Shown here piece by piece: positions 9,477 to 54,444 of a DNA stretch of 64,000 bases. Source of the DNA: a virus (lineage: Duplodnaviria; Caudoviricetes); IMG/VR virus record IMGVR_UViG_3300023218_000040, positions 140,015-204,014 of that record. One strand, 5' to 3'. Position 1 is the first letter of the stretch; each line of letters opens with the position of its first letter. The notes beneath the pieces are model-generated. The model made no database searches and had not been told where the DNA came from. It worked only from the letters and a program-made list of their open reading frames with translations. A program made the translations under genes and the position numbers.

Positions 9477-9836
9477 ACAGTTGCTTGAGCGAACACTTGA
9501 AGCTCTACGGACGGCGGTTCGATTCCGCCCATCTCCACTAAACGATGGACATAGAGTAGCAGTGAGTGTACACCGGTACTCTATTTTCATTAGCGGCAGA
9601 TAACGCACAACTGCCACATCTCTGGGGATGCCCTGGTTTTGACGTGGTGATGGATGGCTAGTAGTGAGACTGTCGGGTTAGACTACCCCCGTAAAGGTTC
9701 ACCCAAAGTATCTGCAAACGATGCTGTATATGACGAGGAGGTTCTTCCTCTCGCTGCATAAGCGGGAGCCAAGAATTCCTACTGCGGCTTAACAACCCGC
9801 AACGTCCGGGGTCTAACGAGCCTTGTTACCAAAATC
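9477..9836 (+). ncRNA. ssrA: Circularly permuted two-piece tmRNA; tag (A)ANDAVYDEEVLPLAA* at 9714-9761
   Basis: T-arm GGCGG-TTCGATT-CCGCC and acceptor 3' strand CATCTCC-A (9530-9537) precede the 5' strand GGGGATG (9624); G3.U70 Ala identity; CTGGTTTTGAC; tag reading frame ending AA-stop. Confidence 0.93.
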
Positions 9837-28247: not shown

Positions 28248-30002
28248 ATGAAACTCCTGGAGTTCCTGGACATCATTCGGGAGGATGACACCAGCGAACC
28301 CGGAAAGTTTGTTGGAGCCCGCCTTACCCGAGAATCTGAACGCAATCTCATGCACTGGATGCGTGAGACGGGCTTGCGTAAGCGTGTCCCACGTGCTCGT
28401 CTCCACATCACCGTCATTGGCGATAAGACTAGGAATTTCGATTGGACTCCCGCTGTATTTGATCCACCCCTAGAAGTCGATGCTTCTACGTATAAGCTTC
28501 AACGCTTCGGGGGTGAGAATGAGTGCGTCGTTCTGACGTTTTCCTGCCCTGAGCTAGAGAAACGTCATAACAAGGCACGTAAAGAACATGGTATCCATTA
28601 TGACCATGACCACTATCAGCCACACATTACTGTTAGTGTCGATCCCAAAGAACTGAATAACCTGGAGAGCCTCCTTCTTCCTACCTTCCCGCTGTATATC
28701 GACCGAGAATACGAGCAGCCTTGGGAACACAAATTCAATGAGAGTTCCGAGCGTCGTCGTAAAGAACGTACTAACGAAGATATTCTATTCGAGCGCAACC
28801 TGCTGAATCCTGAAATGGCGATAGATGCTGCTGATCGTTTCTCTGACTCTTTTGCTCAGTTCGGTGTGCATGTCGCTGAATGGGCAAAGAGATCCATGCG
28901 AAAGTATGTCATCAACAATTTCCCTGCTAAGAAAATCATACAGTACGAGTTGATGGATATCATCCCTCCTGACGCAGACAAACAGAAGATTGTTCAGGGT
29001 GCTGCTGTCATTCAATATCCAAACGACCCTGAAACATTCGGTATCCTGAGTGGACGCACTCAAGAGCAAACTCTGTCATTGCCAATCTGGGCTGCAAATG
29101 CTCTCCAACGGGGCGAAGAGATATACTTCCTGGACAGCAAAGCCATTTTTGGAAGGGGAGGACTGGATTATCAAACACGGATGGTTGCAGACTGGTTCAG
29201 AAATTTGTCACGTACTAATCCACAGTTGCTTGAGCCACATCGACTCAACAGAATGTCTTGGGCTCAAGCTCTTCAAGGTACCGAGAAATATCACGAAGAA
29301 CTCAAACGTAGAAAAGAAGCAGACATTGAGGAAGAGGGAGACAAAGAACTGTACCTGGACCTCGGACAGAATGGTCAATGGTGGAAGCTAACGGGACCAT
29401 CATGCCTTGACCGTGAAGGTAACTTGATGGGTCACTGTGTTGCAGATTACATCGATGATGTAGAAAGCGATGAAGCAATCATTCTGTCACTTCGTGACTC
29501 TAAAAACAATCCACATGTTACTGTGGAACTTCGTCCGTTTGAGATGAAGGATGCACAGGGTATTGCAATCGAACAAATCAAGGGTAAAGAAAACGAGCCC
29601 CCTGTGAAGAAGTATTGGCCGCAGGTTGAAGAATTACTCAAACACTTGAAGAGTGAGACCACCATCACGGCTGGTGATGGCATGGGAGAAGAAGACCTCT
29701 TAGCAATGGGTATCATCATTGTTCCATTTGATGACAACGCAATCATTCGAGTGTCAGCAACGGGAGATCCCGGTGACCCATTAGATTGGAGTATTGAAAT
29801 CAAGGGCGTGATTATCGACATGGGCAAGGAGATGGACTACGAGGAAGAAAGCACAGTGGAAGAATTCTCCAACGACAACAATTTGAATCCTCAAGAACTC
29901 ATCTACAACTTAGCCAAGACCGGTGAATATCGAATCGAGGGGTTTGATTCGGATCTCGTAGTCTATCCAACGTATTCATGGTCGATGAAAAAGATTGGTT
30001 AA
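28248..30002 (+). CDS. Fusion of an Acb1/gp57B-like 2H phosphoesterase and a PcfJ-like domain, probable virion protein
   Basis: VPRARLHITV and YQPHITVS HxT motifs and IDREYEQP match T4 gp57B as I recall it; EG..MGHCV..Y..SLRD..N.PHVT.E..QIKGK.N. Confidence 0.8.
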   Translation: MKLLEFLDIIREDDTSEPGKFVGARLTRESERNLMHWMRETGLRKRVPRARLHITVIGDKTRNFDWTPAVFDPPLEVDASTYKLQRFGGENECVVLTFSCPELEKRHNKARKEHGIHYDHDHYQPHITVSVDPKELNNLESLLLPTFPLYIDREYEQPWEHKFNESSERRRKERTNEDILFERNLLNPEMAIDAADRFSDSFAQFGVHVAEWAKRSMRKYVINNFPAKKIIQYELMDIIPPDADKQKIVQGAAVIQYPNDPETFGILSGRTQEQTLSLPIWAANALQRGEEIYFLDSKAIFGRGGLDYQTRMVADWFRNLSRTNPQLLEPHRLNRMSWAQALQGTEKYHEELKRRKEADIEEEGDKELYLDLGQNGQWWKLTGPSCLDREGNLMGHCVADYIDDVESDEAIILSLRDSKNNPHVTVELRPFEMKDAQGIAIEQIKGKENEPPVKKYWPQVEELLKHLKSETTITAGDGMGEEDLLAMGIIIVPFDDNAIIRVSATGDPGDPLDWSIEIKGVIIDMGKEMDYEEESTVEEFSNDNNLNPQELIYNLAKTGEYRIEGFDSDLVVYPTYSWSMKKIG

Positions 30003-40818: not shown

Positions 40819-40907
40819 GGGTGTTTTTCCCCACTCTGGTCTGTAAAACCAGCGTCAAAAAACCGTGGGGTGGTAGACGGGAGGTTCGATTCCTTGAACA
40901 CCCACCA
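40819..40907 (+). ncRNA. Non-canonical tRNA-like RNA with GTA (Tyr) anticodon and no D-arm in the normal position
   Basis: GGGTGTT/AACACCC acceptor, A73, CCA; CTGGT-CTGTAAA-ACCAG; T-loop TTCGATT; own TAAATA promoter and terminator. Confidence 0.75.
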
Positions 40908-40910
40908 AAT

Positions 40911-41018: not shown

Positions 41019-41246
41019 ATGTACAAGGACGCTTACGCAATTCTGGAGGAGGAGTCGCCGTGCGACACGTGCGAGAACTTCATGCAGTGCCGTTACGAGC
41101 CGCTCGCCTGCAAGGACTTCCTGGACTACACGAACGACGGCAAACTGGTCCGCTACGACGACGAGGGCAACGAGATCGAGGGCAACAAGGAGCCGAAGCG
41201 ACGCTACTACAAAGTGCTCTTCCCGAATGACCAGATCACCGCCTGA
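41019..41246 (+). CDS. Small Cys-rich hypothetical protein
   Basis: RBS GAGGAG; PCDTC...C...C. Confidence 0.65.
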   Translation: MYKDAYAILEEESPCDTCENFMQCRYEPLACKDFLDYTNDGKLVRYDDEGNEIEGNKEPKRRYYKVLFPNDQITA

Positions 41247-41252
41247 AAACAC

Positions 41253-41281
41253 TTGACAAACGGGATAGAGGAGAGTATAGT
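41253..41281 (+). promoter_or_regulatory. Near-consensus sigma70 promoter driving the long non-coding region
   Basis: TTGACA-17 bp-TATAGT. Confidence 0.8.
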
Positions 41282-41287
41282 ACACAC

Positions 41288-41922
41288 CATAGCAGAGAAT
41301 ACTATACAAAGAACCACGGATTCACAGGGATTAATAGGGTTGCGTTCGAATAATACACGCACCCGGCGACCTGGGGTAACGTCGCCATTCAAAGACCCCC
41401 TTGACATTTGGGTGGCTCTACGGACCTACCCGGCGACCTGAGCACGTCGCCTGACGAATAAAAGGCTCCCCGAATTTTTGAATTCGGTGGCATCTTCGAC
41501 TGAGACGGTACCGTGATACAGCACGGGGAAAGTGGAGAATAACTGTACGCCAACGTAGTCGAACCTCTGCCACCGACTTACAATCGGAGACGTACATCGT
41601 TTCCGGGCGACCTCGGCAAGTCGCCTGACGAAAAAACTGCCCTTTGAACACGGTCTTTTGTTTCTGGATTCGCCCATGGGATGACCGGGAAATCATAACC
41701 GGGTGTTAGCGAGCCTTGGGAAGAGACATCGAATGTAATGGAGTCCGACTAGCCATACAGTGTCGGTGACAGGCTGGAAAGACAGCGGTTTGAGACAAGT
41801 CGGGCCAAGAGCGGCCAACCTGACAGCCGGTGTGAGTCCGGGCAGCCCGACGACTTGAATTGCAGGGTGCCGCACCTGGGAACAGGTGGCCGCTGGAGGC
41901 TCGATCCCTCAACTCTGCTCCA
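41288..41922 (+). ncRNA. Candidate long structured ncRNA with three pseudoknot modules and a 3' tRNA-like CCA domain
   Basis: ~660 bp with no credible CDS; 3x GGCGAC/GTCGCC stems with covarying loop-downstream pairing; multiple long helices. Confidence 0.65.
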
Positions 41923-41951
41923 ATCAACGCCAAATTCGGAGATAAGACCTA

Positions 41952-42281
41952 ATGGCAACAAAGACAACCAAACTGGCTGGACCCGATAGCAAAGGCAACT
42001 ACAAGGTGCTCTCGGTCACCAATCATCTCGGCGTGAAGCCCGGTGAGGTTTACACCGAACGCTATGTTCGAAACCACATCATGCACTCCAACGGTCCCAA
42101 CGTGACCATCGTCCAGCCGAAGTACGAGGGCATGGTCGAGAAGCAGCGGAAGTGCTTCACGGATAAGCCCGTCAACCATGACTTCTGGTCGAGCCCATTC
42201 GCTGAGGAAGTAGATGGCAGCCAAGAGAGTCTGGATGCAGCTTACGCAAAGTTCGCTGCTTTTCTGAAAGAAAATTCTTGA
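41952..42281 (+). CDS. Hypothetical early protein
   Basis: RBS GGAGA; codon bias. Confidence 0.65.
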   Translation: MATKTTKLAGPDSKGNYKVLSVTNHLGVKPGEVYTERYVRNHIMHSNGPNVTIVQPKYEGMVEKQRKCFTDKPVNHDFWSSPFAEEVDGSQESLDAAYAKFAAFLKENS

Positions 42282-42642: not shown

Positions 42643-42866
42643 ACGTGACAACGACCGCTGAGGAGACATTCACCCTTGAGGACAGCCAGGACATGGCGCT
42701 TATGGTCTACCGTCGATTCGGCTACGATCTGTGCGCCGCCACGGCTGCCTGGAGGCGCATGCTTCAGAACAATGCCACTCGTGGGGATTATCTGGATCTC
42801 CTAATCGGTGCTGCGGCTCGTCAACCGGCAAATCGTGACATCGCTTCTATTCTCAGAAAGGATTAA
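42639..42866 (+). CDS. Hypothetical protein
   Basis: ATGA overlap, RBS AAGGAG. Confidence 0.55.
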   Translation: MNVTTTAEETFTLEDSQDMALMVYRRFGYDLCAATAAWRRMLQNNATRGDYLDLLIGAAARQPANRDIASILRKD

Positions 42867-43954
42867 ACCACAACCAGTCCGTGCGAGGGCAGTAGCTCTC
42901 GCAGGACGTAATGACGATAGTAGCTGGCTGCTTTCATGAATCGGTAGACCGGTAAGTTTAGAATATCGGAACTGGTCTTCATATTCTTGAAGTTGTTCCA
43001 CTGCTTATGCCAGTGAACTGAATTATACTCTGGCATTCCATCCTGAAACCCAAATTCGAACCTACGTGCTGCTTTCTTCCAGGCTTCGGCTCTGGTTTTT
43101 TTGTTACCCACGGTAGCCAAGATCCTCTCGATGCGCTGCTTGTGTCCCAAGAACCGCATCTTGCTCTTGCGATCATAAACCTCGGGATGAACATCTACAT
43201 ATTCAACTAGCTTGTCATAAACTGTCTCACACGCTTGCATGTATGTCTGTGGATTATTTCTCCAAATGCGTTCTGCATTCTTTGGATATTCTGGAATATA
43301 GCTCCACTCCAAGAATGGGATATCGGGATACGTAGATACTCCACCGTGGCCTAGTGCTCCACTATAGATTTCACTGACACCACTAATCACGGAACGAATA
43401 TTAGACAGCAGACCACCTTGGTAGCCGTATTCGTTGAACCATTCTGAAATAGTACGACCCAAAGCCATACGTACTACTTCTTCTGATTGTCTTAGCTTGA
43501 AGGAATCTCCACGAACACGATTTCGACGGGAAGACACTCCAGAGAATCTATAATGAGCGAAGGTATCCTGGAATGTATGAAGACTGATGCCCATCAATTC
43601 TGCATGGTAGTCAGCTTGGCAGTTGATACTGTTTTGTATCATCTCTTGTGCGATAAGAGAATTCTTTCTACAGAGGAGACGTTCGGTCCACGCTTCGCCC
43701 TGATTACCTGGAATGAAATGAAATGGAACCCAGATGAAACGTTGGTCATCCTCATCTCTATTTCTTAGATTGCCAGGGTGATGAGCGGTCGGGATAGCGA
43801 CTATTTTTCCGCCATCCTCGTGATCACCGATTTCACGAGCGGTATTATCATCAACGTACTGGGTCGAGTACGCTATGATGTGTGAAGTTTCAGCATTGAT
43901 CCCAGCGATACGTGATAAACAATACGTACCGTAATAATGCATGTCTACCTGCAT
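42863..43954 (-). CDS. DUF6765-like His-rich protein (possible Zn-dependent phospholipase C/P1 nuclease fold)
   Basis: MQ.DMHYYGTY, SQYVDD-like, TAHH, PFHFIPG, LHTFQDTFAH, LGHG. Confidence 0.6.
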   Translation of the reverse strand: MQVDMHYYGTYCLSRIAGINAETSHIIAYSTQYVDDNTAREIGDHEDGGKIVAIPTAHHPGNLRNRDEDDQRFIWVPFHFIPGNQGEAWTERLLCRKNSLIAQEMIQNSINCQADYHAELMGISLHTFQDTFAHYRFSGVSSRRNRVRGDSFKLRQSEEVVRMALGRTISEWFNEYGYQGGLLSNIRSVISGVSEIYSGALGHGGVSTYPDIPFLEWSYIPEYPKNAERIWRNNPQTYMQACETVYDKLVEYVDVHPEVYDRKSKMRFLGHKQRIERILATVGNKKTRAEAWKKAARRFEFGFQDGMPEYNSVHWHKQWNNFKNMKTSSDILNLPVYRFMKAASYYRHYVLRELLPSHGLVVV

Positions 43955-44001
43955 GGGCCTTTTTCTTGTTATTTGCCGTGGCTCTATGGCCACACAGGTA
44001 T

Positions 44002-44742
44002 TTAGTCTAAGAAGTTGCTGGAGAACTCCACTGCGTTTTCACTCTGGGCCTTGGTGTATTTGGTAAGTCCGGTCCAGTCGCCATCAAAGATCTCATCAGC
44101 CAATCCCCAATCCACTGTTTCCTTGGCAGTCAGAAATACATCGTCTTTTCGGCGCATCTGTTCCATGAGCATGTCAGCAATCCATTCTGATTTTTTCTTG
44201 GAGAACTTTCCACCTTGCTTCATGCGACGGACATAGATTTCCAACATCAGGCGGTTAGTATCTTTGTAGAACTCCATCCCGGACATGACAGTACGCATGT
44301 TTCCTTCATCCCCATAGGTTCCCTCATGAAACATGAAGTGCGAATTGGGCATCATGACTCTCTTAGTCACAGCCTGGAAAATGATGGAAGACATCGACCG
44401 GGCGTGAGAATAGTTCAGGATCGTGGTATCATGAGGATAGGAGATGAGCATATCGAACATGGCCATGCCTTCGATCCAATCTCCACCGTTGGTCTTCATG
44501 TGGATCACGACTGGACTTTGAGAGGTCTTCATACACAGATGCATATTCAAAACAAAGCGATTGGCCATCGTGAAATTGACACCGGGTTCAGCATCTCCAT
44601 AAGCATCAGTTCCGGCCAGATTGTGATCACCGAACAGATAGATGTGGTTGTTTTGAATATCCAGATGATATTCTTGCATGCGATAAACCGGATCTTCCGC
44701 CTTATTCAATTTCACCTTATCGGTATTGTCAAATTTAGCCAT
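44002..44742 (-). CDS. clpP: ClpP-like protease
   Basis: TNGGD, ARSMSS (Ser), FMFHEG (His), DVFLTAKE..WGLADEI. Confidence 0.8.
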   Translation of the reverse strand: MAKFDNTDKVKLNKAEDPVYRMQEYHLDIQNNHIYLFGDHNLAGTDAYGDAEPGVNFTMANRFVLNMHLCMKTSQSPVVIHMKTNGGDWIEGMAMFDMLISYPHDTTILNYSHARSMSSIIFQAVTKRVMMPNSHFMFHEGTYGDEGNMRTVMSGMEFYKDTNRLMLEIYVRRMKQGGKFSKKKSEWIADMLMEQMRRKDDVFLTAKETVDWGLADEIFDGDWTGLTKYTKAQSENAVEFSSNFLD

Positions 44743-44821
44743 CGAAATGCCTCCTATGTGGTGTCTGAAATATATGGCTACCCGATCCGGCTGTCAAACA
44801 TCAAATTCCTCAAGAAAAAGC

Positions 44822-44850
44822 TTGACATTGGATCGTGAATTTGATAAGAT
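44822..44850 (+). promoter_or_regulatory. sigma70 promoter
   Basis: TTGACA-17 bp-TAAGAT. Confidence 0.7.
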
Positions 44851-44856
44851 ACTTGT

Positions 44857-45050
44857 GTTGTGGGAGGCGACTCCCTTGCGGATGCCCACACCAAAGGTTG
44901 GTAGAAGCCTGTTCCTTTCGCCTGGAACTAATAGCACGCTCATCCTTAATTGGATGTGAAGACCGGGATCTGGTGGGTATTAACCTCACCAGTCATGGGT
45001 AGGCTCCACCGGGTTGTGGCTGACCGTCGCATCGAGTGTTGACCAACCGG
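44857..45050 (+). ncRNA. Candidate multi-helix ncRNA
   Basis: GGTTGGT/ACCAACC closing stem, AGCCT/AGGCT, three internal hairpins, GNRA-capped 5' hairpin. Confidence 0.5.
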
Positions 45051-45098
45051 TTTCTCTTGACTTTCGAGTCGAGTCGATATAAATATACTGTACGCAAC

Positions 45099-45177
45099 GC
45101 TCCGTTGGACTAGTCTGGTTTAGGTCGTCACCCTCTCAAGGTGAAGGTCGTGGGTTCGAATCCCACACGGAGTGCCA
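45099..45177 (+). tRNA. tRNA-Glu(CTC)
   Basis: TCACC-CTCTCAA-GGTGA, cloverleaf, CCA. Confidence 0.9.
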
Positions 45178-45179
45178 AT

Positions 45180-45256
45180 GCACCGTTCGTCTAGTGGCCT
45201 AGGATGCCTGCCTTTCAAGCAGGAAGACGCCGGTTCGAATCCGGCACGGTGTACCA
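45180..45256 (+). tRNA. tRNA-Glu(TTC)
   Basis: CCTGC-CTTTCAA-GCAGG, cloverleaf, CCA. Confidence 0.93.
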
Positions 45257-45264
45257 AATTCTCT

Positions 45265-45344
45265 GCCCCTGTATCCCCTCGGGTTTCTACCCCGATGAAA
45301 GGGTAATTGGACACATGCGGGTTCGAATCCTGTCTGGGGCTCCA
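45265..45344 (+). ncRNA. Non-canonical tRNA-like RNA with TCT (Arg) anticodon and no D-arm in the normal position
   Basis: GCCCCTG/CTGGGGC acceptor + TCCA; TCGGG-TTTCTAC-CCCGA; GCGGG-TTCGAAT-CCTGT; D-loop-like AATTGGA lies after the anticodon arm. Confidence 0.75.
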
Positions 45345-45451
45345 CGCCATTGATCCCACCAAAAGGATGGAAACATCCGAAATTGACACTGGACAAACGA
45401 CCGTTCTGTGTGATACTATATACTCCCTGATATTTTTGGAGAGCTAGAGTC

Positions 45452-46663
45452 ATGGCCACATTTTCAGTTCCAGTCGTCCGTATCGACGCCATCGAGGACC
45501 ATCCCAATGCCGACGCCTTGGAGATCGCCAAGGTGCGTGACTTCGATTGCATCACCCGCATCGGTGAGTACAAGGCTGGTGATATCGCTGTGTACATCCC
45601 CGAGGCTGCGGTCATGCCCGAGTGGCTGCTGAAGCGCATGGGTCTGTGGGATGAGGAGAAAGGCAAAGGCAAGCTGGCAGGCAAAGAAGGCAATCGTGTC
45701 AAGGCTGTCAAGCTGCGTGGCGTCGTGAGTCAGGGTCTGTTGTACCCGGTGTCTTGGGATGACCCAGATCTGTCTCAGGGAGAGACTGTCGGTCTGCCTC
45801 GTGTCGATCTGAGCGACGGCGAAAGCTACCTGCTGTATGACTGGAACGACGTGGACATCGAGACCATCAAGTCTCGTTGCATCGACGTGGACGTGGGAGA
45901 CGTGCTTGGCATCACCAAGTGGGAGCCTCCCATTCCGACGCACATGGCTGGTGAGGTCTGCAACATCTTCGGCCACACTCTGAAGTTCGACATCGAGAAC
46001 ATCCAGAAGCACAACGAGGTTCTGGTTTCGGGCGAGGAGGTCGTGATCACCGAGAAGCTTCACGGCACCTGGACGTGCTTTGGCTTCGATCCGGACCTGG
46101 ATCACGAGGAACTTCTTCACGGTGGCACCATCATCAACTCTAAGGGTCTGAGCGAGCAGGGTTTGGCATTCAAGTGGAACGACGCCAATGACAAGAACCT
46201 GTACGTTCGGATGTTCAAGCAGTACATGCTGGATACTGGTAGATGGAACAAGGTGATGGACATGGCCGTTCGTCGTGGCGAGCCCGTGTTCATCCTGGGT
46301 GAGACCTTCGGTCCTGGTGTACAAGATCTGCACTACGGTCTGAAGGAGAAGAGTTTTCTGGTGTTCGGCATCTACGTCGGCAAGCCGGGTCAGGGTCAAT
46401 ACCTCGATCACGTGGAGTTCAAGCAGACGTGCTCCTGGCTAGAGGTTTCCACGGTACCGGTCCTGTACCATGGTCCGTTCAGCATGGATACTGCCAAGAG
46501 CTTTCGTGACGGAAAGGATACCATCACCGGAGCCAACATTCGGGAGGGTATCGTGATTACTCCGGTTAAAGAACGAAACGATTTCGTGCTGGGTCGGGTG
46601 ACTCTCAAGATGATCAGCCCGGACTACCTGCTGCGGAAGGGCAATGCCACGGAATTCAACTGA
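45452..46663 (+). CDS. RNA ligase, DRB0094/Rnl2-like family with N-terminal OB-like domain
   Basis: HPNADALE, VYIPEAAV, VKAVKLRGVVSQGL, TEKLHGT, GETFG, REGIV, LK.ISPDYL. Confidence 0.88.
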   Translation: MATFSVPVVRIDAIEDHPNADALEIAKVRDFDCITRIGEYKAGDIAVYIPEAAVMPEWLLKRMGLWDEEKGKGKLAGKEGNRVKAVKLRGVVSQGLLYPVSWDDPDLSQGETVGLPRVDLSDGESYLLYDWNDVDIETIKSRCIDVDVGDVLGITKWEPPIPTHMAGEVCNIFGHTLKFDIENIQKHNEVLVSGEEVVITEKLHGTWTCFGFDPDLDHEELLHGGTIINSKGLSEQGLAFKWNDANDKNLYVRMFKQYMLDTGRWNKVMDMAVRRGEPVFILGETFGPGVQDLHYGLKEKSFLVFGIYVGKPGQGQYLDHVEFKQTCSWLEVSTVPVLYHGPFSMDTAKSFRDGKDTITGANIREGIVITPVKERNDFVLGRVTLKMISPDYLLRKGNATEFN

Positions 46664-51706: not shown

Positions 51707-52627
51707 ATGGCTACATTAATCTTAGCCCATTATTACGCTCCCATCGAAGTACAGCGTATCGCTGACCACACGGGCGATAGCCTGGAACTAGCCCGAGTAG
51801 CACAAGAAGAGAAAGCAGACCGCATTGTGTTTGCTGGTGTTCGCTTCATGGCTGAAACAGCTAAGGTGCTCAACCCGGAATCCGAAGTCATCCTACCAGA
51901 TTGGGGATCTACCTGTTCCTTGGTCGAACAGACCGATACCAACGATCTCCAGAGATGGAGGGATGAACATTCGGACCACACCCATGTGATGTACATCAAT
52001 TCCAGCGTAGCTCAGAAGGCTATGGCGGACTGGATCGTGACCTCACGTAACGTGGAACCAATTATTACAAGCTTACTCAACGAGGGTAAAAAGGTGATGT
52101 TTTCACCTGACCGAAACATGGGAGCATACTACAGACGTAAACTTGATATCGATATGCCTATCTGGTTTGCTGTCTGTGAGGTCCATGACCGATTTGATAT
52201 CGAGATGTTACAAGAACGATTCGAGCAACATCCAAATCGATTCTTGATTGCTCACCCAGAAAGTCCAATGGCTATCTTGGACGAGTCGGACTTCATCGCA
52301 TCCACCAAGGGCATGCTTGAATGGGTCAAAATGTATGATGGTCCATCCGATGCAACGATCTTTGTGGCAACGGAATACGAGCTTCTGGAAATCATGAAGG
52401 AAGAGCGTCCAGACCTGAAGATTTCCCAGGTACCAGAGTTCTTGGGATGTCGTTGTGTAAAGTGTCCGTACATGAAGCTCAACACGATGCAGAAGGTTCA
52501 GGATGCCATCAACGGAAAGTCTGGTGTTCCAATTGACTACATTACCGATGAGCAAGCAGAACGTGCGAGGACACCAATCGAAAGGATGGTGTCCTTTAAG
52601 GAGACTGTGCCAGTCATGGGTATCTAA
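51707..52627 (+). CDS. nadA: Quinolinate synthase
   Basis: ILAHYY, GDSL.LA, GVRFMAETAK.LNP, three Fe-S Cys (TCSL, CEVH, CPYM), AHPE, ST.GM. Confidence 0.93.
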   Translation: MATLILAHYYAPIEVQRIADHTGDSLELARVAQEEKADRIVFAGVRFMAETAKVLNPESEVILPDWGSTCSLVEQTDTNDLQRWRDEHSDHTHVMYINSSVAQKAMADWIVTSRNVEPIITSLLNEGKKVMFSPDRNMGAYYRRKLDIDMPIWFAVCEVHDRFDIEMLQERFEQHPNRFLIAHPESPMAILDESDFIASTKGMLEWVKMYDGPSDATIFVATEYELLEIMKEERPDLKISQVPEFLGCRCVKCPYMKLNTMQKVQDAINGKSGVPIDYITDEQAERARTPIERMVSFKETVPVMGI

Positions 52628-54076: not shown

Positions 54077-54444
54077 GTGCAGGTATTCAAGCTATCGCTC
54101 GGCCCATTTTATTGGGAGAGAGGAAGTTCGGGACACCATAGTGCAGACCAGTGGGGAAATCCCACCCGGCGTAATGCTGAGGACAAGTGCCATAGAGACA
54201 GACAGCCGATGGCTCACCCTTCGGGTAGGTTGAGCACAGGCAATAGGTGGAACGGTGGTGTAAGAGACCACACGTAGCATGGCGACATGTTGCGGAAGCA
54301 AACTCTGGTCGGTGCAACTCCAGACAGCTCTGATGACTCGGCACGACGAGGGGCGGGTAGGGGGCGAAGAGGGGTGCTGAAAAGCATACCCCAAGATGAA
54401 TGATAGCTCTTGACAGAATCCCGGCTATAGATATCGTAAAGCAC
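54077..54444 (+). ncRNA. rnpB: RNase P RNA, bacterial type A
   Basis: P2 AGCTATC/GATAGCT, GAGGAAGTTCGGG, AGTGCCATAGAGA, CGATGGC, GGTAAGAG-like, AGATGAATGA, ACAGAATCCCGGCTATA. Confidence 0.92.

Follow-up and report, generated by a model that had tools for sequence, protein, structure and literature searches.

A candidate large non-coding RNA gene of huge phages with an anticodon-less tRNA-like 3' terminus and hairpin–pseudoknot modules

The region 41288–41922 of the window, the 64,000-nt stretch of phage DNA that was analysed, probably encodes (probability about 0.6) a large, structured non-coding RNA from a family of huge-phage RNAs, which would be matured as a stable, trans-acting RNA with a tRNA-like tail. 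The RNA ends in an anticodon-less tRNA-like 3' terminus without a D arm, and upstream of this element it carries three modules, each composed of a hairpin and an H-type pseudoknot (Table 1). Homologues were found in about ten metagenome contigs, each time upstream of the same small gene. Just some 11 distinct sequences, each of metagenomic origin, made up the family; the RNA lengths were about 0.45 to 1.3 kb, and on these sequences the family of huge-phage structured RNAs is apparently undescribed. The form in the window was without the ~450–600-nt 5' domain of its relatives, and this domain was not found elsewhere in the available 204 kb.

Table 1. Features of the RNA locus, in coordinates of the window
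Feature	Position	Strand	Basis and remarks
Sigma-70-type promoter, TTGACA-17-TATAGT	41253–41281	+	11 of 12 consensus matches; expected start about 41286–41289
Non-coding RNA, ~635 nt, short form of the family	41288–41922	+	MFE; no Rfam or Pfam match; homologous blocks in L009, L002, L013, L133 and others
Module 1	41337–41399	+	R2 41.4 bits; hairpin 41337–41364; stem 1 41365–41370/41381–41386
Module 1, stem 2	GGGGU 41373–41377/ACCCC 41395–41399	+	loop/tail pairing
Module 2	41410–41468	+	R2 59.7 bits; hairpin 41410–41431; stem 1 41432–41437/41446–41451
Module 2, stem 2	GAGC 41440–41443/GCUC 41465–41468	+	loop/tail pairing
Long irregular hairpin domain	41484–41576	+	z = −4.3; 0 of 200 shuffles as good
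Module 3	41585–41641	+	R2 51.4 bits; hairpin 41585–41605; stem 1 41606–41611/41620–41625
Module 3, stem 2	GGCA 41615–41618/UGCC 41638–41641	+	loop/tail pairing
Conserved middle block	41659–41792	+	contains GGAUUCGCCC motif (41666–41675), mini hairpin 41726–41736 and GGAGUCCGACUAGCC block
Helix GUCGGGC/GCCCGAC around AAGAGCGGCC block, and hairpin with conserved UGUGAG loop (41827–41841)	41799–41851	+	
tRNA-like element	41862–41922	+	MFE fold of segment; RNAalifold consensus
Acceptor stem, 7 bp	41862–41868/41912–41918	+	
Long arm capped by GGAA (41879–41882), replacing D and anticodon arms	41869–41893	+	
T stem with T-like loop CUCGAUC	41896–41899/41907–41910	+	
Discriminator U; CCA	41919; 41920–41922	+	
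Small gene, conserved N-terminus MATKTTKLAGPD...	41952–42281	+	synteny

The initial annotation of this DNA had described a structured RNA transcribed from a consensus sigma70 promoter with no credible coding sequence inside it, and this description held. The promoter was near-consensus, and sites with 9–12 of 12 matches were also present in L009, L002, L017, and L016 at the same spacing from the conserved 5' end; its position was kept in the five full-length members scanned. None of the six ORFs (60–92 aa) overlapping the region matched Pfam at E ≤ 1. The minimum free energy (MFE) of the + strand gave a z value of −3.4 against shuffled sequences and that of the − strand a z value of −1.45, so only the + strand folded better than shuffled sequence. 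The comparison with Rfam that the annotation had named recognised no known family: a cmscan of 41100–42100 against all families of Rfam 15 at E ≤ 10 returned nothing but a meaningless 16-bit snoRNA match, and no family matched L009, L002, L016, or L017 at E ≤ 1. The sequence was present in none of the RNA sequencing runs searched for the locus.

In the tRNA-like element, the acceptor stem has 7 bp and the T stem carries a T-like loop of 7 nt; a discriminator base and CCA complete it. In the alignment of this element across the family, 94% of cells were paired and 9 of 20 pairs were compensated, while none of 500 shuffles was as good. The covariance model built for it, R1, scored family members at 25–95 bits and the true tRNAs of the window at 13–19 bits, a weak cross-match. 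Neither a D arm nor the 7-nt anticodon loop of a tRNA cloverleaf was found, and ARAGORN and the Rfam tRNA model made no call. The first base of the T-like loop is C rather than U, and a D loop with which to build a tRNA elbow is missing. The encoded end was U/A-CCA in six lineages, and CCA was not encoded in the L014/L015/L016 and L129 lineages. In L132, the family blocks were present with no tRNA-like element detected by model R1; the tRNA-like end is therefore common, not universal.

In the MFE fold of the window RNA, the 5' end AGCAGAG (41291–41297) was paired with the 3' strand of the acceptor stem, which would compete with the tRNA-like fold; this pairing was absent from the relatives. 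A divergent one-piece tmRNA or an intron-bearing tRNA closed by 41291–41297/41913–41919 was rejected, the closure not being conserved and the acceptor stem being local. A group I or group II intron in a tRNA-like gene was likewise rejected, as no model matched and the element was contiguous and complete without splicing.

The combination of an anticodon-less acceptor/T-arm module ending in CCA with several H-type pseudoknots containing A-rich loops is shared with tmRNA, and the phage invests heavily in RNAs of translation. A chargeable RNA of this kind, in which the tRNA-like element would be aminoacylated and the RNA would act on ribosomes, is nevertheless highly improbable. In the acceptor stem, the 5' strand precedes its partner by 44 nt; the stem is local and backed by covariation, and it is not formed by the two termini of the RNA. 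The G3–U70 pair was absent, the third acceptor pair being A–U, G–C, C–G, or U–A, and no tag-like reading frame was found. ARAGORN and the Rfam tmRNA models, which identified a permuted tmRNA at 9477–9761 of the window, were silent at this locus. The tRNA-like ends of the TYMV and TMV RNA genomes, with an acceptor arm formed by a pseudoknot, are aminoacylated and are preceded by upstream pseudoknot domains. The phage RNA has the same order of pseudoknot(s) followed by a tRNA-like structure ending in CCA, whereas it is a non-coding RNA of a DNA phage, with an ordinary 7-bp acceptor helix and no evident identity elements.

The GGCGAC...GTCGCC stem, reported three times by the initial annotation, was found by a regular expression at exactly three sites of the 204,014-bp record (41365–41386, 41432–41451, and 41606–41625), and the module covariance model R2 detected only the same three copies in the record, at 41–60 bits. 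The hairpins noted directly before each stem all folded, with energies of −8.6 (41337–41364), −10.3 (41410–41431), and −10.5 kcal/mol (41585–41605) and z values of −2.0 to −3.9. Loop 3 was UGACGAAUAAAAG in module 2 and UGACGAAAAAAC in module 3, and in module 1 it was short and divergent (AUUCAAAG). Considered singly, none of the three loop/tail pairings stood out (shuffle p about 0.2). Shuffle tests of single modules were weak (p = 0.04–0.32; Fisher's combination about 0.015), and the case for the pseudoknot rests on the covariation tests.

The module was found in every relative examined except L132, with one copy per relative versus three in the window; among the sequences compared, the threefold arrangement is peculiar to the window phage. 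Module 3 occupied the position of the single module in L133, L009, and L013, and the order of long hairpin, hairpin, and module was the same in L133 as in the window. Across the family, stem 2 was formed by seven different complementary sequences and stem 1 by three versions. The anchored module alignment had 91% of cells paired and five compensated pairs, a result equalled by 1 of 500 shuffles, and slid controls gave 31–49% of cells paired. Only 6 of 5040 permutations of the loops and tails were as good as the cognate combinations. Furthermore, the modules of L017, L129, and L133 were recovered at 23–49 bits by models built without them. Each loop thus pairs with sequence 3' of its hairpin, and covariation keeps the pairing, as in an H-type pseudoknot. 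The loop pairing past an A-rich linker that the annotation had proposed was borne out once homologues were included, and its repeated fold is real and selected, with compensatory changes in both stems. Its three-module picture stands for the modules themselves; it had overlooked the tRNA-like end, the family homology, and the restriction of the threefold repeat to this phage.

The same covariation bears on a role at the DNA level, in which the three palindromes would be protein sites (operators, iterons, or an origin) and the RNA folds incidental. The three spaced inverted repeats are unique in the genome, but the covarying pairs between loop and non-palindromic tail and within the tRNA-like element include G–U, and they are meaningful only in the + strand RNA. 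In addition, the relatives have one copy and the folding signal differs between the strands, and this explanation is scarcely credible.

Small pseudoknot riboswitches of the preQ1-I and SAM-II type are composed of stem 1, a short loop, stem 2, and an A-rich loop 3 that runs along stem 1. The module is alike in topology. Here, however, the conserved part was loop 3 (UGACGAA-A-rich, 8–16 nt) and the junction loops were not conserved: L1 was CU, CUC, UG, CGAC, or CGAUA, and L2 ranged from 0 to 4 nt. No Rfam family was matched, and the module was embedded in a long RNA with no adjoining expression platform. The variation of L1 and L2 argues against a ligand pocket of the preQ1 type. The ligand array suggested at first is conjectural, as is the protein sponge against host defence or regulators that was put forward with it.

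The distance between module and tRNA-like element differed between two sets of family members. The module lay 0–90 nt upstream of the element in L002, L017, L129, and L014–L016, directly abutting it in the first three, and 215–450 nt away in the window, L009, L013, and L133. The initial annotation had suggested roadblocks against a 5' exonuclease (RNase J). This idea fits poorly with relatives whose single module lies at variable positions, in several of them beside the 3' end. A broader form, in which enzymes of the RNase J, RNase E, or 3'-exonuclease type would be halted at the knots and leave nested stable fragments, has only a slim likelihood. Folds of this kind, in which a compact pseudoknot containing an A-rich strand stacks on a hairpin, are hard to unwind, and a module close to the tRNA-like element could guard the 3' end after an RNase P cut; the arrangement recalls MALAT1, in which a triple helix adjoins mascRNA. 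Against this stand the 215–450-nt gap in four members, the single module in all relatives, and the ring-like three-way-junction fold of known exonuclease-resistant RNAs, which was not evident here.

Three further domains were conserved between or beside the modules and the tRNA-like element. The long hairpin aligned to L133 (1640–1725) and L002 (4050–4135), with 5 of 23 pairs compensated. In the middle block, the GGAUUCGCCC motif was common to the window, L009, and L002, and the mini hairpin was a site of variable insertions, the relatives having a longer hairpin at this position by reading of the sequences. A sediment metagenome from a separate study yielded a 272-nt contig with ~95% identity over 41659–41727 and 41732–41792, in which 96 nt replaced 4 nt at the tip of the mini hairpin. 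The blocks of 41799–41851 were 79–89% identical to L013 and L009. The 7-bp helix there had two compensated pairs (RNAalifold, window and L013), and the stem of the UGUGAG hairpin reads CCGG/CCGG in the window and CCAG/CUGG in L013. Six SNPs between strain copies fell in none of the supported pairs. Strain copies occur in SRR23862439 and in JGI 3300023214.

Several other pairings were considered and rejected. A group I core with P7 formed by 41744–41751/41798–41805 failed since the second strand pairs instead with 41845–41851, with covariation, and no model matched an RNase P-like P4. The pairing of GCGGCCA (41811–41817) with UGGCCGC (41887–41893) in the MFE fold was mismatched in L013 and L009.

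The small gene was always located downstream of the RNA in the family. Neither a promoter-like nor a terminator-like site was found on the + strand of 41922–41952, and the gene is probably co-transcribed with the RNA, to judge from the sequence. In L009, an extra gene lies between the two, and the small gene there has its own promoter-like site by reading of the sequence. The small protein, of 109 aa, had no Pfam or PHROG family. Its AlphaFold model had a pLDDT of 68 and matched no fold in the PDB at E ≤ 0.001, the top rows being insignificant matches to small ribosomal-protein chains.

The constant position directly upstream of one gene family, with no terminator between, would also suit a giant cis-acting leader, that is, a 5' UTR whose modules act as ligand or protein switches of preQ1-I-like topology on translation or read-through. 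The stem, loop, and A-rich tail of small pseudoknot riboswitches are present, and 41467–41477 of the window is 91% complementary to the Shine-Dalgarno region 41932–41942. A leader is, however, distinctly unlikely. The extra gene and promoter-like site of L009 split the RNA from the small gene while the tRNA-like end is kept, and the module lies from about 70 to about 600 nt from the gene, in one to three copies. L1 and L2 are not conserved, no riboswitch family of Rfam was matched, and the tRNA-like element is placed between the supposed sensor and the ribosome-binding site. A length of 0.45–1.3 kb also far exceeds that of any leader known to us.

In the preferred reading, that of a tRNA-tailed stable RNA, the RNA and the small gene would be transcribed together, and the tRNA-like element would serve as a handle for tRNA-maturation enzymes, with RNase P acting at its 5' boundary and, at its 3' boundary, RNase Z or exonucleases together with the CCA-adding enzyme. 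These enzymes would free the RNA from the mRNA, and the RNA, or a released tRNA-like piece of ~60 nt, would gain a protected tRNA-type end. The conservation of the A-rich loop 3, while both stems covary, suggests that the modules are compact pseudoknots, in which the A-rich strand probably lies in the groove of stem 1; they may provide rigid points at which a protein or RNA partner docks or assembles. The RNA would act in trans and be abundant and stable during infection, as proposed for GOLLD and ROOL. The processing by RNase P and RNase Z, the repair of CCA, the triple-helix geometry, and the partner are what we infer.

In MALAT1/mascRNA and in the tRNA punctuation of polycistronic transcripts, which are eukaryotic or organellar systems, RNA ends are set by RNase P and RNase Z at a tRNA-like element. 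The layout of the phage RNA is similar, in that a tRNA-shaped structure closes a long non-coding RNA and further transcript follows; here, such cleavage is a prediction. The upstream stabiliser, if any, would be a pseudoknot module at variable distance here, in contrast to the U-rich/A-rich triple helix of MALAT1.

GOLLD and ROOL form homo-oligomeric nanocages. As in these RNAs, the RNA described here is phage-encoded, lies in or next to a tRNA cluster, has a length of hundreds of nucleotides with many helices and pseudoknots, and has no known protein partner or function. A self-assembling scaffold or cage of the GOLLD/ROOL kind, in which many copies would join by loop–loop and A-minor contacts to form an RNA-only particle, with the modules as connectors and the tRNA-like element on display, was judged unlikely. 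It would agree with the position within a tRNA island, the size of 0.45–1.3 kb with many pseudoknots and hairpins, the conserved 3' part and variable or dispensable 5' part, the covalently attached tRNA-like element, and a module copy number of one to three, as connectors might vary. GOLLD itself lies near tRNA islands, is conserved in its 3' part and less conserved in its 5' part, and sometimes has tRNAs in its linker (bioRxiv 10.1101/2024.12.08.627333). The likeness extends to genomic context and general style and does not amount to membership: the covariance models of GOLLD, ROOL, and all other Rfam families failed to match the window at E ≤ 10 or four relatives at E ≤ 1. The phage RNA also differs from both by its anticodon-less tRNA-like 3' end, its repeated module, a pseudoknot whose A-rich loop is conserved, its constant linkage to a small protein gene, and its occurrence so far only in metagenomic huge-phage contigs. 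As to function, the best guess is that tRNA-processing enzymes mature it into a stable RNA, comparable to GOLLD and ROOL although a member of neither.

More speculatively, and with doubt outweighing belief, the RNA could represent a third giant phage RNA class after GOLLD and ROOL, a machine or particle combining an anticodon-less tRNA mimic with pseudoknot docking modules and acting on the tRNA-handling or translation apparatus of the host. Conceivable targets for recruitment or titration include RNase P, the CCA-adding enzyme, EF-Tu, and a defence enzyme directed at tRNA ends; alternatively, the RNA might form an RNP with the adjacent small protein. To our knowledge, very few bacterial or phage non-coding RNA classes longer than 500 nt exist, and those studied have turned out to be exceptional in structure. 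The present family would add an RNA class whose main domains covary and which has a defined promoter, a tRNA-like 3' end, and a compact pseudoknot module that differs between phages in copy number and position. Giant structured RNAs keep company with phage tRNA islands for reasons as yet unexplained, and the family would carry this pattern over to huge phages of the environment. The tRNA-like end invites biochemical tests of RNase P cleavage, CCA addition, and charging, the neighbouring gene provides a candidate protein partner, and short, well-delimited constructs of about 440–635 nt, from the L129 form to that of the window, suit cryo-EM.

Direct searches returned few family members. A blastn search with the region as query found no relatives among 50,697 phage records, and none came from locus searches that used the flanking genes or DUF6765 as single-protein queries. 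The upstream 75-aa protein had no relatives either. Scans of viral contigs for the exact module pattern and for the T-arm pattern gave no match, and neither of two 22-mers taken from the middle block was found in the viral, genome, and metagenome contigs scanned. Searching with the pattern GGGACCGGCNCGCGATNGCCG returned 100 GTDB and 2 IMG/VR matches in GC-rich DNA, which were judged to be chance because nothing else in them resembled the RNA. The module pattern scan identified one JGI contig (L015) and zero GTDB genomes.

The 204,014-bp record is viral and 55% complete. In addition to the RNA, the window encodes a class A RNase P RNA (54082–54439) and 12 tRNAs, and a tRNA-Tyr gene is located upstream of the RNA in the window, L009, and L002.

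Comparison with its relatives showed that the putative non-coding RNA at 41288–41922 (+) belongs to a family of predicted promoter-driven, strongly structured RNAs that contain a pseudoknot module and have a tRNA-like element at the 3′ end. The initial annotation had described a promoter-driven, non-coding transcript with three modules of hairpin and H-type pseudoknot, and these elements were recovered in the window (Table). The GGCGAC...GTCGCC stem occurred three times and nowhere else in the whole 204-kb record. Each stem was directly preceded by a hairpin (z −2.0 to −3.9), a sigma70 promoter (TTGACA-17-TATAGT) was located upstream, and the ORFs of the region (60–92 aa) gave no Pfam match. 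Each loop was complementary to 4–5 bases of the tail, 8–13 nt past the stem (GGGGU/ACCCC, GAGC/GCUC, and GGCA/UGCC). One rival explanation regards the stems as DNA-level repeats; compared with shuffled sequence, the + strand folded better (z = −3.4) and the − strand did not (z = −1.45). The proposed Rfam check gave no family matching at E ≤ 10. Since each loop/tail match in the window was weak by itself (shuffle p about 0.2 each), relatives were required.

No homologues of the RNA were found by DNA searches or by close-relative protein searches. Homologues of the small gene directly 3′ of the RNA were found in a collection of 5.8 billion proteins, and the non-coding gaps on their contigs contained homologues of the RNA. 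These measured about 0.44 kb (contig L129), 0.78 kb (L017), 1.03 kb (L002), 1.05 kb (L016), 1.1 kb (L009), and 1.27 kb (L133), with partial copies in L013, L014, L015, and L132. L007 and L008 were strain copies of the window, 99% identical, and the six SNPs between strain copies all fell outside supported pairs. The family comprised about 11 distinct sequences, all metagenomic, and the Rfam search of the relatives' RNAs gave no match. A 272-nt contig from a sediment metagenome of another study was about 95% identical to 41659–41792 and had 96 nt at the tip of a mini-hairpin where the window has 4 nt, an insertion pattern typical of structured RNA. Two contigs of NCBI assembly GCA_905168365.1, L004 and L017, differed clearly in their versions of the RNA locus; the assembly thus combines related phages and does not represent a single genome. 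L132 (1–503) was a more distant relative, with the UGUGAG hairpin and GGCUAAUCGGG...CCCGAUGAA blocks upstream of the small gene.

A module model built from seven instances matched three sites in the window and exactly one per relative, and it also recovered the modules of L017, L129, and L133, none of which had been used in building. Stem 1 occurred in three versions (GGCGAC/GUCGCC, CGCGAC/GUCGCG, and AGCGUC/GACGCU) and stem 2 in seven different complementary sequences, while loop 3 was almost constant (UGACGAA, then an A-rich run). In the anchored alignment, 91% of cells were paired and 5 pairs were compensated, which was matched by 1 of 500 shuffles; slid controls gave 31–49%. When loops and tails were swapped among the seven types, 6 of 5040 permutations, and none of the derangements, equalled the real total, and the covariation claimed for the loop/tail pairs was thus borne out. 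Because the A-rich loop 3 is conserved while the stems freely covary, the module may be a compact knot serving as a docking or assembly node; nuclease roadblocks, suggested in the initial annotation, are a rival reading. In L002, L017, L129, and L014–L016, the module adjoined the 3′ element; in the window and in L009, L013, and L133, it was 5′ of the middle block.

The tRNA-like element formed the 3′ end of all members except L132, in which its covariance model, R1, detected none (1–503). The tRNA-like fold was both the MFE fold of the segment and the RNAalifold consensus. Scores with model R1 were 25–95 bits for the family members, among them L129 and L133, neither of which had contributed to the model, and 13–19 bits for the true tRNAs of the window. 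In the nine-sequence alignment, 94% of cells were paired with compensatory changes in 9 of 20 pairs, whereas 0 of 500 shuffles were as good and slid controls gave 42–52%. The element had no D arm or anticodon loop, and neither ARAGORN nor the Rfam tRNA model identified it. RNase P, RNase Z, and the CCA-adding enzyme would probably recognise the element as a signal for cleavage and for protection of the RNA end; a tmRNA-like chargeable RNA is a rival reading. The layout resembles that of mascRNA-type 3′ processing, in which a long RNA has a tRNA-like 3′ end, and that of plant-virus ends, in which a pseudoknot is joined to a tRNA-like structure. The MFE fold of the full molecule was dominated by a perfect 7-bp complement between the 5′ end (AGCAGAG, 41291–97) and the acceptor 3′ strand (CUCUGCU, 41913–19), which would compete with the tRNA-like fold. 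This complementarity was missing from the relatives, and the closure was therefore considered fortuitous, or a local alternative at best. Model R1 also gave a weak match (16 bits) at 40863–40910 (+), in the 3′ half of an odd tRNA-Tyr-like gene.

Features in and around the RNA (window positions)
Feature	Position	Strand	Remark
Permuted (two-piece) tmRNA gene	9477–9761	+	95 bits, Rfam tmRNA_permuted
Sigma70 promoter	41253–81		
Hairpins 5′ of the stems	41337–64; 41410–31; 41585–605		
GGCGAC...GTCGCC stems	41365; 41432; 41606		
Acceptor stem	41862–68/41912–18		
Long arm	41869–93		capped by GGAA
T stem	41896–99/41907–10		loop CUCGAUC
Discriminator	41919		U
CCA	41920–22		
Small gene	41952–42281	+	109 aa
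DUF6765 (−), ClpP-like protease (−), two tRNA-Glu, RNA ligase (+)	42863–46663		ligase with PHA02142 OB domain
Quinolinate synthase NadA	51707–52627		
Class A bacterial RNase P RNA, full-length	54082–54439	+	168 bits, model positions 1–367

A sigma-70-like promoter (9–12 of 12 matches) was present 7–10 nt before the conserved 5′ end in all five full-length members scanned. A 5′ domain opened the long forms; in its main helix, 4 of 11 pairs were compensated. This domain was missing from the window copy and was not found in the rest of the available 204 kb; the window copy is a short form. Its parts were ordered as promoter, leader of about 50 nt, module 1, module 2, long hairpin, module 3, middle block, UGUGAG helix, and tRNA-like element, the same order as in L133 from the long hairpin onward, and modules 1 and 2 are additional copies. 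The long hairpin (41484–41576) could be aligned with L133 and L002, and 5 of its pairs were compensated. The helix of the 3′ domain (41799–805/41845–51), which encloses the conserved UGUGAG-loop hairpin, had 2 compensated pairs when compared with L013. In the variable part of the L016 RNA (about 2255–2345), a T arm and acceptor 3′ strand ending in UUCCA were directly followed by a 5′-acceptor/D-arm-like sequence (GGGUAGCUCAGCGGU). This segment looks like a permuted tRNA-like insert, on which ARAGORN made no call.

No + strand promoter or terminator was found between the CCA and the small gene, and in L009, where a 69-aa gene and a promoter-like site (TTGACT-17-TAGGAT) are inserted at this point (2216–2553), the small gene has this promoter-like site of its own. 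For these reasons, the RNA and the small gene probably form one transcript; a giant cis-acting leader is a rival reading of this arrangement. In L009, a copy of the CUCCA-UUCACGCC junction was repeated just 5′ of the small gene. The closest known kind is represented by GOLLD and ROOL, large ornate phage RNAs likewise found near tRNA islands; in GOLLD, the 3′ part is conserved and the 5′ part variable, and a tRNA is sometimes embedded (bioRxiv 10.1101/2024.12.08.627333). A self-assembling particle like those of GOLLD and ROOL is a further rival, and the model test for membership failed, with no match in Rfam. No description of the RNA was found in the literature.

The window was the final 64 kb of the 204-kb IMG/VR viral record (completeness 55% by CheckV) and encoded 12 tRNAs. 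A homologue of the small gene was also present on a 360-kb contig, which therefore indicates a huge phage; no recognisable fold was found for its 109-aa protein. Synteny was kept among the relatives' contigs as tRNA-Tyr/ligase, the long non-coding gap, the small gene, and DUF6765 (−) and ClpP (−). The DUF6765/ClpP pair was 3′ of the RNA in all sufficiently long contigs except L016, in which DUF6765 alone was called. A normal tRNA-Tyr(GTA) was located upstream of the RNA in L009 (845–929) and L002 (2288–2372), and tRNA-Tyr thus belongs to the conserved neighbourhood. The class A RNase P RNA of the window is unusual for a phage, and would matter here if RNase P acts on the tRNA-like element. The tag peptide given by ARAGORN for the permuted tmRNA appeared implausible. 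A 584-aa protein (28248–30002, +) was a fusion of an Acb1 (anti-CBASS phosphodiesterase) domain at the N-terminus (E = 6e-22) with a PcfJ-like domain. In L015 (− strand, about 536–120) and L016 (3368–3637), the gene after the small gene began with an N-terminal methylation motif like that of type IV pilins (a weak N_methyl match).
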